A stretch of 61,321 nt of DNA from a bacterium. Its GTDB lineage: Bacteria > Patescibacteriota > Minisyncoccia > Phycocordibacterales > UBA12445. The stretch lies in the NCBI GenBank assembly GCA_030648005.1, contig JAUSIP010000004.1, positions 1-61,321 of the forward strand, read 5' to 3'. Numbering within the stretch: the stretch's first letter is position 1; each line of letters starts with the position of its first letter. Below are positions 1,452-49,550 of this stretch, piece after piece. Below the pieces are notes generated by a model, which saw nothing but the letters and a program-made list of their open reading frames with translations, made no database searches and was not told the origin of the DNA. The position numbers were made by a program, and so were the translations under genes.

Positions 1452-2033
1452 TTATAAAATTAGGTTCTCTAACTCGTCTTTAGTGTACTTCTCTGAAACA
1501 TACCTGTCAACCACATCGATATTTTCACGATAGTTGAAGTCACTACCATCGATATTTTTAACGACCAAATCTACCTTAATGCGATCTAAAAATTCGGTTT
1601 TTAAAATATTTACATTTTTCCTAGCTACAAAGTATTGGTCAATAAAGGCCTGTCTTGGCACATTCCTACCATCTTTCTTCTCTCGAGCCCTAACAAAATC
1701 CCACGCCTGCAATGGATCCTGATAAACATAAACGATCTGAACAAACCTTCCTCTATCCAGAGAACGACTAATGTTGTCTTTAGAAATATCCAACTTAGAT
1801 AAAGTCCCATCAAATATAAAACTTTGCTTGTTATTGAGTGCATAATCCTGAATCTTCTCAGCAAGAATGGAAGCTGCTCCCATAAAAAGATAAGAATTAG
1901 CACCATTATAACCGGGAATTTTATCTCGCAAATCATCAGGGTCAATTCTTAAAACCGAATGGCTATCTTTAGTAAACTTTTTTATAAGATTTCTTGAAGA
2001 CTCAGTCTTGCCCGCCCCAGGTGAACCAGCCAT
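1452..2033 (-). CDS. zeta-toxin/PezT-family P-loop kinase, apparently N-terminally truncated
   Basis: Walker A GSPGAGKT sits at residues 3-10. It is followed by LRIDPDDLRDKIPGYNG...SFIFDGTLS, the Zeta_toxin layout. The ORF begins directly at the P-loop, with no SD and a terminator immediately upstream. Confidence 0.6.
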   Translation of the reverse strand: MAGSPGAGKTESSRNLIKKFTKDSHSVLRIDPDDLRDKIPGYNGANSYLFMGAASILAEKIQDYALNNKQSFIFDGTLSKLDISKDNISRSLDRGRFVQIVYVYQDPLQAWDFVRAREKKDGRNVPRQAFIDQYFVARKNVNILKTEFLDRIKVDLVVKNIDGSDFNYRENIDVVDRYVSEKYTKDELENLIL

Positions 2034-2095: not shown

Positions 2096-2815
2096 TTATT
2101 TTAAATACTCCTTCAATGTATAGGATATATCGCTATTCTCCTCCCCTGTCTTGATCTTCTCCTTCAGAAGCCATTCGAGATATCCGCGGTCGGTGGTGGC
2201 GACTTCGCTGACGAGAGAGCCTTTGTACTTGCCGAACTTGAACCGCTTCACGAGTGTAGGCCGACTTGAGATCCTGACCATCTCCTCTATCGCGGACTCT
2301 TCATCCGGAATCTTCTTCATCATCAACTCTAAAAGCTTACCGAAGACGGCATACAGAACGATGACATCGCCCTTGGCATCATGAGCCGGGGCGTCGAGCA
2401 CAAGCCCGAAGTGATAGCGCAAGTACTGAAGCTTGTACTCCGGTATCTCCTCCTTATCGTCAAGATATCTTGCCACGCGCAAGGTGCAGATCTTCCTTGG
2501 TACTTGCAGACCCTCATTCCCAAGTATCGCAGCATCGAAGTCAGCATTGTGAGCCACCATGACATGATCGGCGAGCTTCTCCTTCAGATACTCATGTGAC
2601 GGACTTCTCTGAAAGGGCGGCTTGTACGCAACCATCTCGTTGGTGATATGGTGGACACTCATCGCACCGACAGGAATAGGGAAAGGTGGCTTGTAGTAAT
2701 TAGCCTTGATCTCCTCTCCAACCTTGTAATAACAAAGCTGACACAGGCGATCCTTCTTCACATCAATGCCGGTCGTCTCGGTGTCGAGAAAAATCAGTTT
2801 CATTTTATTGTTCAA
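2096..2815 (-). CDS. DEDDh 3'-5' exonuclease (DnaQ/ExoX-like) with a C-terminal FGKYKG...YLEWLL tail domain
   Basis: Exo I is LIFLDTETTG, Exo II is HNADFDAAIL and Exo III is HDAKGDV. The tail FKFGKYKGSLVSEVATTDRGYLEWLL resembles the ExoX/DUF3820-type domain. AGGAGG at 2829-2824 lies 8 nt before TTG 2815; the track start GTG 2824 overlaps that SD. Confidence 0.8.
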   Translation of the reverse strand: MNNKMKLIFLDTETTGIDVKKDRLCQLCYYKVGEEIKANYYKPPFPIPVGAMSVHHITNEMVAYKPPFQRSPSHEYLKEKLADHVMVAHNADFDAAILGNEGLQVPRKICTLRVARYLDDKEEIPEYKLQYLRYHFGLVLDAPAHDAKGDVIVLYAVFGKLLELMMKKIPDEESAIEEMVRISSRPTLVKRFKFGKYKGSLVSEVATTDRGYLEWLLKEKIKTGEENSDISYTLKEYLK

Positions 2816-2925
2816 AGTTAACACCTCCTGTTAAAACTTATCAGAAAAAGAGGAAATGTAAAGAATGAGATTGCTTTGTTCCTCGCAATGACGAGAAGAA
2901 ATTCCACAGACAGAGAGTGAAGTTA

Positions 2926-3128
2926 GTTTTTAAAAATTAATGGAGCAAGTGGGTTATCCTTAGAAGACCCTTTCGGAGCCGAACAAGCACGGTCTCTGGC
3001 TATAATATGCGGAGCAGCCAGAGTTGTGAGGCGAGAAGAGCAGAGGATTTCGGCTGGGAAATCCTAATGCGAGGTCTGAGAGGGATAACCCCGAGCGGAA
3101 TTTTTAAAAACCAACGGAACGGTTATCC
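2926..3128. ncRNA. candidate structured RNA (multi-helix, about 190 nt), class unknown
   Basis: Nested complementary segments: GTTTTTAAAAATT 2926-2938 with AATTTTTAAAAAC 3099-3111; GGGTTATCC 2951-2959 with GGATAACCC 3083-3091; AGACC 2965-2969 with GGTCT 3073-3077; CTCTGGCT 2994-3001 with AGCCAGAG 3016-3023; GGATTTC 3045-3051 with GAAATCC 3058-3064. A third arm, GGTTATCC 3121-3128, competes for 3083-3090. Strand not determined. Confidence 0.35.
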
Positions 3129-3133
3129 ACCAC

Positions 3134-3709
3134 TTAAGCGTTCTGACTGAATTTTTTGATGCCCAACCAGATCAAAGAAATTAAAGCTAGCCCAAGGATG
3201 ATGACGCGGAGGTAATCGTCCATATCAGACCAGTAGCGGATCGAGCCGATTATAAAGGAAAGTACTCCGCCCATAGATAATCCAAGTGAGACAGGCGTGT
3301 TCTCGCCCGCATAGTAACCGGCGAACATTGAGAGCATACCGAGTACAACTAAGGCCACGAATACGTTGCGGTTGTAAACTCTGGAGGTGTCTTCATAATT
3401 CTTACTGCAGGTAAATTGCACATTACAATATCCGCGATACACGGAAGTGTACTCTCCGGCCGGTGTGGTAAATGGGGCCGGTACCATCTTCTGCCCCTTA
3501 GGATAATACTCCGCGCTCTCGTTCCACTGACCGCCGACAGCAAGGCAAGAATCTTTCGAATCCGGCGGGACATTAACCTGTTCTACCTTACAAAAATTCT
3601 CATATACCGGCGCTTTATAGACCAGCTTGATGGCAAAGTTGAAAAAAAGGTTAAGTACAATGACGATAGCGAGCGCTAAAGTCCACTTAAATATATTGTT
3701 TGTTTTCAT
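3134..3709 (-). CDS. hypothetical membrane protein (N-terminal TM, Cys-containing extracytoplasmic segment, 3 C-terminal TMs)
   Basis: Hydrophobic segments WTLALAIVIVLNLFFNFAI, VFVALVVLGMLSMFAGYY, LGLSMGGVLSFIIGSI and VIILGLALISLIWLGI. ATG 3709 is preferred over GTG 3745 because TATAAT (3721-3716) ends 6 nt before it. Confidence 0.6.
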   Translation of the reverse strand: MKTNNIFKWTLALAIVIVLNLFFNFAIKLVYKAPVYENFCKVEQVNVPPDSKDSCLAVGGQWNESAEYYPKGQKMVPAPFTTPAGEYTSVYRGYCNVQFTCSKNYEDTSRVYNRNVFVALVVLGMLSMFAGYYAGENTPVSLGLSMGGVLSFIIGSIRYWSDMDDYLRVIILGLALISLIWLGIKKFSQNA

Positions 3710-3752
3710 GCTTATATTATAAACCCTTTTATGAGTTTTTACCACATCGCCT

Positions 3753-3888
3753 CACAGTTTAAACTGTGGAATATGTTAAATTTTCAATGTCTGGTTGAGG
3801 AAAACCCTTAAACTAAAGAGTCGACTCTGTTTTCCGACCCGAGGACTTGGAAATTTAATATGTTTCAAAGTTTAAAGTGGGCGAATAC
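3753..3888 (+). repeat. AT-clamped hairpin element, copy A (family with 49420-49550 and 51724-51808)
   Basis: About 130 nt aligns with the reverse complement of 49420-49550. Outer arms 3771-3791 and 3844-3861 pair. Core is GTCTGG 3789-3794, TT, GA, helix GGAAAAC 3799-3805 with GTTTTCC 3829-3835, GA, CCCGAGGAC 3838-3846. Confidence 0.7.
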
Positions 3889-3894
3889 AAACGC

Positions 3895-3923
3895 TTGACA
3901 AAAAAAGTGGCCTATGCTATACT
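3895..3923 (+). promoter_or_regulatory. sigma70-type promoter of the cold-shock gene
   Basis: TTGACA 3895-3900, 17-nt spacer, TATACT 3918-3923. This predicts a ~85-nt 5' UTR, which is typical of csp genes. Confidence 0.6.
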
Positions 3924-4014
3924 TGATGTACATAAAGAGTTGTGGTTCTAAAACAAGTCGAGTTCTTAGGTATCATAGAAATCTTGTGTACTTTAATAGA
4001 TATCAAACTAGCCA

Positions 4015-4215
4015 ATGACAGGAACAATAAAGAAATTGATCTCTGACAAGGGTTTTGGTTTCATCACTGCCGAGGGTCTTGCTAAGGATCTTTTCTTCCA
4101 CAGCAATTCTCTCAATGGTGTTCAGTTCACTGAACTTCATGAAGGTGATTCTGTATCTTTCGATACAGAGCAGACTCCAAAGGGCCCGGCCGCTGTAAAC
4201 GTACAGCGAGCGTAA
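4015..4215 (+). CDS. cold-shock domain protein (CspA family)
   Basis: RNP1 is KGFGFI and the RNP2-like motif is DLFFH. At 66 aa it is a full-length CSD, and a strong terminator follows. Confidence 0.9.
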   Translation: MTGTIKKLISDKGFGFITAEGLAKDLFFHSNSLNGVQFTELHEGDSVSFDTEQTPKGPAAVNVQRA

Positions 4216-4217
4216 GA

Positions 4218-4254
4218 CAAAAAAATCCCCTACCTCAGGTAGGGGATTTTTTTG
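4218..4254 (+). terminator. Rho-independent terminator after csp (symmetric A/T flanks, potentially bidirectional)
   Basis: ATCCCCTACC 4225-4234, loop TCA, GGTAGGGGAT 4238-4247 (10 bp), followed by a T-run. Confidence 0.85.
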
Positions 4255-4289
4255 TTAACCAACATCTCCTATCTTCCGCGTCTCGCTTC

Positions 4290-4375: not shown

Positions 4376-4434
4376 TCTCTCCTCGCTCTACATCGAAGTC
4401 TGAAAGTTTTAACAAGAGTCAAAAAAAATAAAAA

Positions 4435-4462
4435 CCGTCCGATGCAAATCGGGCGGTTTTTA
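4435..4462 (+). terminator. Rho-independent terminator/attenuator about 60 nt upstream of the MOSC gene
   Basis: CCGTCCGAT 4435-4443, GNRA loop GCAA, ATCGGGCGG 4448-4456 (9 bp, one G-U), then TTTTT. Confidence 0.7.
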
Positions 4463-4525
4463 TATTGCAAATCAGTGTTCTCTAATATAGGCTGTAATAG
4501 GAAAATACAGAGGAGGTGCGTTGGT

Positions 4526-49419: not shown

Positions 49420-49550
49420 GCGAACCTTAAACTACAAATATATTAAATTTTCAAGTCCTCGGGTCGGGAAACAGGACACAAGTTGTCTAACAAAGGTTTC
49501 CCTCAACCAGACATTAAAAATTTAATATATTCTGTACTTTAAGGCTGTGA
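49420..49550 (-). repeat. AT-clamped hairpin element, copy B, inside the groES-groEL spacer
   Basis: Its reverse complement aligns with 3753-3888. Core is GTCTGG (49512-49507), TT, GA, helix GGGAAAC (49502-49496) with GTTTCCC (49472-49466), GA, CCCGAGGAC (49463-49455). Confidence 0.7.

Follow-up and report, generated by a model that had tools for sequence, protein, structure and literature searches.

A conserved three-way-junction RNA family in Patescibacteria, with one member in a groundwater contig

Among the described systems closest to the RNA element considered here are aptamers built on a three-way junction and orphan riboswitch candidates (such as TPP, glycine, c-di-GMP-I and the 'terminator-embedded' HMP-PP thiS motif), which like it measure ~100–160 nt. 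Also known are small or antisense RNAs derived from or controlled by riboswitches, such as SreA and SreB of Listeria, AspocR under the control of a B12 riboswitch, and EutX of Enterococcus, as well as structured intergenic repeats including Correia/NEMIS, ERIC and other bacterial miniature inverted-repeat transposable elements (MITEs), which resemble the element in size (~130–190 bp) and in having inverted termini that fold into a long hairpin. The element lies in contig JAUSIP010000004.1 (assembly GCA_030648005.1), of which positions 1 to 61,321, hereafter the window, were analysed; the contig belongs to a Patescibacteria (candidate phyla radiation) bacterium from groundwater, and its proteins have their best named relatives in Vogelbacteria, Zambryskibacteria and further metagenome-assembled genomes (MAGs) of Parcubacteria type. 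Situated within a 330-nt gap between two minus-strand genes, window positions 2951–3091 are one member of a conserved family of structured RNAs, ~140–160 nt in length and organised around a three-way junction, that occurs in Patescibacteria.

Three homologues from other genomes, together with the window copy, constituted the four full sequences available for comparison. Exact-pattern scans with the conserved blocks, the patterns of which were probably too strict, returned one genome match (L004) and one metagenome match (L005). The fourth copy (L008), which is much more divergent, came from a locus retrieved for its orthologue of the gene that follows the L005 copy, and was recognised by a covariance model (R1) built from the window, L004 and L005 copies; a second model (R2) was derived from the alignment of all four.

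L004, 502–659: Saccharibacteria MAG; exact-pattern scan of conserved blocks.
L005, 44–190: Hainich groundwater contig; exact-pattern scan of conserved blocks.
L008, 7424–7570: Vogelbacteria MAG, identical to L009 210–356; R1 match, 53.8 bits, E ~8e-15.

Scores for R1 and R2 on the window core were 172 and 149 bits, respectively, with the homologues scoring 54–167 bits. The component parts of the element, in window coordinates and all on the + strand, are as follows.

2951–3091 (+): conserved core bounded by the P1 strands, its closing rod leading to a tight three-way junction that bears two arms; supported by models R1 and R2 and by covariation.
2951–2959 with 3083–3091 (+): P1, GGGUUAUCC with GGAUAACCC; helix 1, compensatory changes in 5 of 9 pairs.
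2960–2964 and 3078–3082 (+): purine-rich 3x3 internal loop, (A/C)GA on the 5' side and (G/U)AGA(G/A) on the 3' side; GAA and AGA invariant in the four sequences.
2965–2969 with 3073–3077 (+): P2, AGACC with GGUCU; helix 2, 100% paired, double changes in 2 of 5 pairs.
2970–2977 (+): near-invariant block C-UUUC-GGA, its GGA opposite GA 3033–3034.
2971–2974 with 3035–3038 (+): P2a, UUUC with GAAG; helix 3, 94% paired, one U-A to C-G double change, in L008.
2978–3032 (+): arm A; helices 4 and 5, double changes in 10 of 14 pairs.
2978–2980 with 3030–3032 (+): P3a of arm A.
2981–2982 with 3028–3029 (+): tandem G-A of arm A.
2983–2986 with 3024–3027 (+): P3b of arm A.
2987–2993 (+): conserved 7-nt bulge G-N-W-Y-GGU of arm A.
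2994–3001 with 3016–3023 (+): P3c of arm A; more variants in metagenome contigs.
3002–3015 (+): 14-nt P3c loop containing TATAAT.
3030–3045 (+): most conserved block GGCGAGAAGAGCAGAG, which includes the junction A, the 3' sides of both P3a and P2a, and the 5' side of the arm B base.
3040–3070 (+): arm B; helix 6, double changes in 9 of 12 pairs.
3040–3042 with 3068–3070 (+): arm B base, GCA with UGC.
3044–3051 with 3058–3065 (+): hypervariable P4 of arm B.
3052–3057 (+): P4 loop GGCUGG with invariant GCUGG.
3092–3098 (+): 3' tail C-CGAGCG, shared by the window copy, L004, L005 and a number of metagenome copies, but not by L008.

Read outwards from the junction, arm A thus comprises P2a, the GGA/GA and GA/GA internal loops, P3a/b, the 7-nt bulge and the P3c hairpin, while the purine-rich loop of the closing rod probably forms tandem G-A pairs. 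The blocks that are invariant or nearly so in the four sequences are C(U/C)UUCGGAG, CGAGA...CAG, GCUGG, UAAUGCG and the loop purines: GGCGAGAAGAGCAGAG is identical in the window, L004 and L005 (in L005 from the second base), and L008 retains its CGAGA and CAG. The TATAAT within the P3c loop is perfect in the window (3001–3006, +), and L004 carries the extended -10 sequence TGATATAAT at ~556–566; the loop sequence is near-invariant in the subfamily closest to the window copy and absent from L005 and L008.

An earlier note, made from the window sequence by itself, had described a multi-helix element at this site with a 9-bp rod helix (GGGTTATCC 2951–2959 with GGATAACCC 3083–3091), a purine-rich 3x3 loop, an AGACC/GGTCT helix and two main hairpins at 2994–3001/3016–3023 (14-nt loop) and 3045–3051/3058–3064. 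All of these were confirmed at those positions, the hairpins in sequence, predicted fold and homologues alike, and the same helices covary in the other genomes. Its small TTCG/CGAA hairpin (2972–2975 with 2980–2983) fared differently, being 75% paired in the four sequences with zero compensatory changes, and it competes with the better supported long-range helix UUUC 2971–2974 / GAAG 3035–3038. That helix, P2a, is itself the least secure of those listed because a metagenome copy, X16, alters the UUUC block.

The minimum-free-energy fold of the window element gave z = -4.5 on the minus strand and -4.6 on the plus strand, with 0 of 200 shuffles as stable, and on both strands contained the flanking AT arms, P1, the 3x3 loop, P2 and the two main hairpins; across the window, L004 and L008 copies the z-scores ranged from -4.5 to -8.2. 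Pairwise identity among the four full sequences is 44–67%. In this small set, the alignment of which was fitted to the covariance model, 93.1% of pair cells were occupied by standard pairs, as against 73% in shuffled controls and 34–51% when pairing partners were slid by 1–3 columns, and changes on both sides were seen in 27 of 44 pairs, as against 5–8 with partners slid; none of 500 shuffles attained any of the observed pairing measures. An independent alignment of three sequences with MAFFT and RNAalifold recovered the same helices with 19 compensatory pairs. Fragments from metagenomes added at least seven further P4 stems (CGAGCCC/GGGCGAG, CGAGGCC/GGCCGAG and CUCGCCC/GGGCGAG among them), each with pairing kept and all with a G-C-W-G loop, and two further P3c stems, again with pairing kept. 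The claim that this is a genuine multi-helix element accordingly stands, its z of about -4.5 being joined by compensatory changes in three homologues, and the check by homology and covariation proposed at the outset came out in its favour.

The functional strand is most likely the + strand, because the consensus structure read on that strand has 10 G-U cells and 2 A-C cells (numbers that swap on the minus strand), because the RNAalifold energy is -54.8 kcal/mol on the + strand and -43.8 kcal/mol on the minus strand, and because a strain variant, 3089 C>T, replaces a P1 G-C pair by G-U when read on the + strand. In the window this strand is antisense to both flanking genes. An inference of the opposite strand from a second variant, 3062 T>C, was withdrawn, the partner position being too near the alignment ends to be reported. 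None of the RNA runs searched for the core contains it. The possibility of a conserved peptide was also set aside, because L004 does not have the same reading frame through the conserved blocks as the window and L005 copies. Spurious open reading frames (ORFs) over the element led to no further contigs: a concatenated six-frame pseudo-protein search gave no match, and exact look-ups of four such ORFs returned none.

By comparison with the window, the arrangement in the three homologous loci is uniform, in that the element, read on its + strand, is sense to the gene that follows and stops 12–27 nt short of the start codon. The L004 copy occupies the whole space from a cupredoxin gene to a same-strand gene for a ferric-reductase-like transmembrane/FAD/NAD protein; the L005 copy lies 16 nt upstream of the ATG of a gene for a TehB-like class I S-adenosylmethionine (SAM) methyltransferase; and the copy common to L008 and L009 precedes an orthologous methyltransferase gene, the product of which shows 79% amino acid identity to that of L005. 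Since this last copy is placed between the ATG and a -10 box, TGCTGTAAT, that also occurs in the orthologous loci L007, L010 and L013, from which the element is absent, it must be part of the mRNA leader. The L007 leader, which lacks the element, has a hairpin of its own, TTGAAGAAATT...AATTTCTTCAA (729–787), downstream of a conserved TTGAAA-17-TGTAAT promoter and ending 4 nt before the ATG.

On this evidence the family is tentatively best explained as a cis-acting, aptamer-type leader RNA domain of which the window copy would be an orphan, because three of the four copies are placed as leaders, because neither the junction nor the P4 loop varies, and because the start codon is approached or, in L005, covered by the closing rod. 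Such a domain would fold independently and bind a small ligand or protein at the invariant junction, serving in the other genomes as the 5' untranslated leader of the gene controlled (the TehB-like methyltransferase twice, the ferric-reductase-like flavoprotein once). Where the closing rod reaches to the start codon, or over it as in L005, the predicted rod of which pairs UAUGG with the CCAUG of the start codon, its stability would set the access of ribosomes. The window copy, if transcribed, would yield a short RNA ending at a hairpin and U-run (3115–3157) and convergent with the membrane-protein gene, read-through giving an antisense transcript of that gene. The riboswitch-like idea of the earlier note is retained in altered form, with three homologues in 5' leaders of other genes on the + strand; for the exonuclease gene, to which it had been applied, it is not supported.

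Several findings weigh against a leader domain. No expression platform, whether terminator or Shine-Dalgarno-sequestering, is recognisable in L004, L005 or L008, and in the window, L004 and L008 copies the closing rod has a length and a high stability seldom met in a P1 that switches. Of 10 orthologous methyltransferase loci only 2 carry the element; the eight others, among them one from the same aquifer with a protein of 87% identity, have a short leader without it. Both methyltransferase copies may moreover descend from one ancestral insertion, since L005 and L008 share a nearly identical P3c hairpin. The genes downstream of the homologues share no obvious pathway, and three sense-upstream positions among four full copies is not statistically different from random orientation. 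As for the window copy, it has no + strand gene downstream, and neither a consensus scan nor our own reading found a convincing + strand sigma-70 promoter upstream of it.

The closing rod and the region 3' of it bear on a second explanation, that of a stand-alone or excised small RNA. The 13-bp AT clamp originally described (GTTTTTAAAAATT 2926–2938 with AATTTTTAAAAAC 3099–3111) was verified, and extends to a 17-nt inverted repeat of 94% complementarity (2922–2938 with 3099–3115). Other copies also have AT-rich flanks with TTTAAA, of different sequence. The features concerned are these.

2922–2938 (no strand assigned): left AT-rich arm GTTAGTTTTTAAAAATT, complementary to 3099–3115 and containing the palindrome TTTTTAAAAA.
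3099–3115 (no strand assigned): right AT-rich arm AATTTTTAAAAACCAAC, able to pair with the left arm.
3115–3157 (+): terminator-like hairpin CGGAACG/CGUUCUG with UUA/UAA (3115–3145) followed by UUUUUU (3152–3157), predicted in + strand folds.

The right arm has an alternative, in which its A-run pairs with the T-run 3152–3157 around the hairpin. The hairpin straddles the stop codon of the membrane-protein gene, is flanked by an A-run (3105–3109) and the same T-run, and is more stable on the + strand, being weak on the minus strand (-7.2 kcal/mol, z +1.1); a strict terminator scan did not call it. The layout at 3105–3157 is nevertheless that of two textbook bidirectional intrinsic terminators at 4217–4255 and 4425–4466, each consisting of an A-tract, a perfect GC-rich hairpin and a T-tract, which flank the gap between a cold-shock gene and a MOSC-domain gene and which the consensus scan likewise missed, because its loop-length rule excludes both.

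Within this hairpin lies the third copy of the P1 arm, GGTTATCC (3121–3128), from which the earlier note had derived a switch. The copy is present, but is not conserved, and no comparable repeat occurs in the homologues; equally, a helix between 3083–3090 and 3121–3128 is possible in the window sequence, and is the minimum-free-energy fold of the isolated 3' fragment, but in the full RNA the state containing it is 9.6 kcal/mol worse than that containing P1, and it is absent from the homologues. The two mutually exclusive folds therefore have no comparative support, although a switch is conceivable for this one copy. Two readings of the region can be given: a mundane one, in which convergent units are separated by a terminator region that includes the third copy and the right AT arm, and another in which P1', the helix 3083–3090/3121–3128 and the hairpin would, in this one sequence only, make up a classical aptamer/antiterminator/terminator set.

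A trans-acting or protein-binding small RNA, able to sit in any transcribed spot, is a possible though somewhat unlikely alternative to the leader domain. It would be released as a ~140-nt RNA by the closing rod (P0 plus P1, ~25–30 bp with internal loops), acting as a processing stem for an enzyme such as RNase III, or as a protective one; the window copy would then be a + strand unit of its own, ending at 3115–3157 and sharing that end convergently with the membrane-protein gene. The orientation of the element to its neighbours, antisense in the window and sense in L004, L005 and L008, is not fixed, as expected of such an RNA, and the long closing rods of the window, L004 and L008 copies and of one copy in the groundwater metagenome run X1 are in keeping with it. 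So too are the terminator-like hairpin with A-run and T-run after the window copy, more stable on the + strand, the identical A-tract/hairpin/T-tract layout of the canonical terminators of this genome, and the U-rich tracts after several copies. However, L004 and L008 leave no room for a promoter and terminator of the element's own, a start codon following within 12–27 nt; P0 is weak in L005; and the consensus scan found no promoter upstream of the window copy.

The distribution of the element invites a third explanation. Run X1, which contains the window DNA almost completely, holds at least four different copies with unlike flanks, not assignable to genomes; contigs break inside the element, and summed contig depth, highest at the block GGCGAGAAGAGCAGAG and just 3' of it, is 42–57 over 3030–3079, with a maximum of 53–57, compared with 6.7–10.6 in the flanks (~5x). 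More generally the interior (~2960–3105) recurs on many metagenome contigs with flanks unlike those of the window: a 56–85-nt segment (from 2990 or 2961 to 3045) with 0–4 differences was found in 16 further metagenome runs from groundwater, freshwater, wastewater, soil and aquatic habitats, with P1, P4 and flanks varying between copies. The L004 variant, among the public runs searched, occurs in rock DNA runs only. The three closest relatives of the window (L001–L003) have exonucleases 69–71% identical to that beside the element, in the same neighbourhood (LTD/PKD protein, UDG, cold-shock protein, membrane protein), and their exonuclease loci contain nothing similar to it. In its stead, between the membrane-protein and exonuclease genes, is a gene for a ~410-residue sorbosone/glucose-dehydrogenase-like (GSDH/TrAA12) protein (L001 4691–5920, L002 4568–5791, L003 4700–5950), so that window 2825–3133 has the RNA element, in opposite orientation, in place of the dehydrogenase gene.

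Such findings could be accounted for by a mobile or horizontally spreading structured repeat of MITE, ERIC or Correia type, inserting into AT-rich intergenic DNA, including sites between promoter and gene, and affecting host transcripts only incidentally through stability or termination, a proposition that we consider unlikely. Besides the sporadic presence at orthologous loci (2 of 10), the dehydrogenase gene in place of the element in the relatives, the multiple X1 copies with their excess depth, and the near-identity of one segment across 16 runs of different habitats, it draws on the AT-rich inverted flanks with TTTAAA of most copies, and on other, unrelated AT-clamped hairpin elements in the relatives and in the window, where one of them, termed family 2, has two copies. 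Against it, variable termini around a conserved interior are the reverse of the MITE pattern: the flanks and P1 are different in every copy compared, with no conserved terminal inverted repeats. There is no consistent target-site duplication, the sole 6-bp direct repeat (CGAGTG, in L004 only) overlapping the conserved 3' tail, and no transposase nearby. Only one copy is present in the 61-kb window, where R1 and R2 match nothing other than 2945–3103, and searches of the window and 12 other loci with these models found no further or divergent copies. Purifying and compensatory selection on helices and junction across classes (Saccharibacteria versus Vogelbacteria-like) and the strand-specific G-U pairs also tell against a simple repeat, the latter pointing to RNA function. 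Scans of IMG/VR with the conserved blocks gave no true match, apart from one chance match inside an ORF (L006), and BLAST of phages, plasmids and E. coli genomes gave no match to the element. Nor is a reverse transcriptase gene, as would accompany a retron msr-msd, adjacent to the full copies: the neighbours are exonuclease, membrane protein, cupredoxin, ferric reductase, methyltransferase and SpoU genes.

A self-cleaving or otherwise catalytic RNA, in which the invariant junction nucleotides would be the active site and the variable helices scaffolding, is quite improbable. The combination of an invariant junction and loop with freely covarying helices fits, and varied contexts and orientations with several copies per community, as found here, are a distribution typical of small ribozymes; but no known ribozyme family matches, 140–160 nt is large for a small self-cleaver, no cleavage site is indicated in the data, and the prior for a new ribozyme class is low.

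The model of the earlier note, a minus-strand attenuator or riboswitch in the exonuclease leader switching between P1 and 3083–3090/3121–3128, is very hard to credit: the element does lie between membrane-gene stop and exonuclease start on that strand, an exact 8-nt third arm copy at that position is unlikely by chance (~2/1000 by our own estimate) and the alternative helix is favoured in the isolated 3' fragment, but comparative data largely refute it, since the element is not conserved upstream of exonuclease genes, being absent from three relatives with 69–71% identical exonucleases, the minus strand has A-C mismatches where the + strand has G-U (10 versus 2, with RNAalifold also favouring the + strand), and the alternative helix is both lacking in L004, L005 and L008 and energetically inferior by the margin given above.

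Returning to the leader domain, a bolder extension of it, which we regard as distinctly speculative and on balance unlikely, is that of a ligand-sensing (or catalytic) RNA class specific to Patescibacteria, a self-contained module spreading between lineages and plugging into 5' leaders; in the window it would act either as a small RNA with riboswitch-controlled termination or as an antisense transcript to the membrane-protein gene that can be switched, with 3083–3090/3121–3128 as antiterminator. Were the methyltransferase and ferric-reductase-like genes among its targets, the signal might be a metal, a metalloid or redox state. Patescibacteria account for much of bacterial diversity and have tiny genomes and almost no described regulatory RNAs, and a conserved RNA common to Saccharibacteria and Vogelbacteria-like lineages is an entry point into RNA-based regulation there. 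If ligand binding proves true, the family would add a class to the known riboswitches and might serve as a genetic tool in the group, for which inducible systems are lacking (PMC11665869); if the mobile module proves true, a functional RNA fold would, unusually, be spreading in the manner of a repeat. Whichever holds, the family is now searchable with a four-sequence covariance model.

The earlier note had also seen kinship with a second element at 3753–3888. The AT-clamped appearance and a CCCGAG string are indeed shared, but R1 and R2 do not match this family 2, which comprises 3753–3888 and, as reverse complement, 49436–49542, ~110–130 nt in length and 81% identical. The copy at 3753–3888 is a simple, near-perfect 130-nt rod (z = -6.6) with long AT-rich closing arms, situated just upstream of the cold-shock gene promoter TTGACA-17-TATACT (3895–3923). 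Family 2 has a conserved internal loop, UGGUUGA / GACCCGAG, its copies are separated by one compensatory change (GGAAAAC/GUUUUCC to GGGAAAC/GUUUCCC), and it may represent either a repeat of MITE type or a small hairpin RNA. L002 (5795–5905) and L003 (6749–6882) carry GC-rich cores, unrelated to each other, that are enclosed by perfect inverted repeats of 21–27 bp rich in AT, the latter with termini ATTTTTAAAAAT and arms GAGATAGATTTTTAAAAATTG / CAATTTTTAAAAATCTATCTC. Because AT arms with TTTAAA recur around different cores in the lineage of the window, a general mechanism is suggested, for example an insertion target, a processing stem or a terminator context.

The genes that flank the RNA element are the following.

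2096–2803 (-): DEDD 3'-5' exonuclease, ExoX-like, outside the RNA; Pfam RNase_T and ExoX-like_C, called product of 235 residues.
3134–3745 (-): conserved membrane protein, outside the RNA; 70% identity to the syntenic L001 gene.

The membrane-protein gene, to which no Pfam family was matched, and the + strand RNA converge. A minus-strand call of the consensus scan, CTCACA-17-TATTAT at 3030–3002, could be the promoter of the exonuclease gene. Directly downstream of the latter is a Zeta-toxin/AAA_33-like kinase gene (1452–2033, minus strand; Pfam E = 2e-36), after which come small ORFs at 1261–1446 and 961–1260; kinase gene and small ORFs may be a toxin-antitoxin or nucleotide-kinase module. The ~700 nt at 262–960 are without an ORF of at least 50 residues, and hold an AT-rich inverted repeat (377–394 with 520–537) with a fold weakly better than shuffles (z = -2.1). 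Further along, a long minus-strand gene array (5585–31875) includes genes for an LTD/PKD surface protein, an O-antigen-ligase/TPR protein and a B12-binding radical SAM enzyme, and from the annotation of its first three genes, to 10814, looks like a cell-envelope or glycan cluster.

With respect to known families, the 4227 covariance models of Rfam 15 were applied at gathering and permissive thresholds. At the former there were 0 matches in the window; at E <= 10 over 2700–4100 none covered the core, the sole overlap being a chance-level 13-bit SAM-SAH match in the left AT arm (2918–2947); and at E <= 5 nothing was reported on the L004, L005 or L008 homologues. A tRNA/tmRNA scan gave no match, and the literature searched contained no description of the motif, nor of MITE-like elements in Patescibacteria. 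The earlier note, too, had matched the element to no known family, and by these searches the RNA family appears to be one without known relative, although of a familiar general kind, that of structured leader or noncoding RNA motifs.

Comparison with individual systems bears this out. 6S RNA (RF00013) is similar in its ~180 nt, paired 5'/3' ends and variable gene context; the element, however, is a three-way junction without a large central bubble, and RF00013 did not match at E <= 10. 5S rRNA (RF00001) is likewise a three-way junction of similar size, and shares the strings GCCGAAC and AUGCGAG...GAGAG...GGGA.AAC, but arm lengths and loops differ and RF00001 did not score at E <= 10. The resemblance to MITEs extends to insertion between promoter and gene, in either orientation, sporadic presence and contig breaks, whereas the element differs in its variable termini and conserved interior, its true three-way junction with compensatory evolution across classes, and its want of target duplication or of multi-copy evidence within one genome. 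In common with SreA/SreB, AspocR and EutX, the window copy has an aptamer-like domain followed by a terminator-like hairpin and facing a convergent gene, and the 3' strand of its P1 could pair with the 5' half of the hairpin (3121–3128), as in riboswitch-controlled small RNAs; by contrast with those systems, a single sequence shows this layout, and the alternative pairing, poorer in energy, is not conserved. From aptamer leaders the element departs in having no Rfam match and, beyond the candidate antiterminator of the window copy and the rod that covers the AUG in L005, no recognisable expression platform, in its very long closing rod, in its sporadic occurrence among orthologues, and in the lack of a gene downstream of the window copy. 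Yet it shares with the three-way-junction aptamers a closing P1, a junction and two arms, stems that covary freely, and invariant nucleotides at the junction, in internal loops and in one hairpin loop; as in aptamer leaders, three of its four copies lie directly 5' of a sense-strand start codon; and in its conserved aptamer-like structure with covariation and invariant junction nucleotides it has one of the features by which a riboswitch would be recognised.

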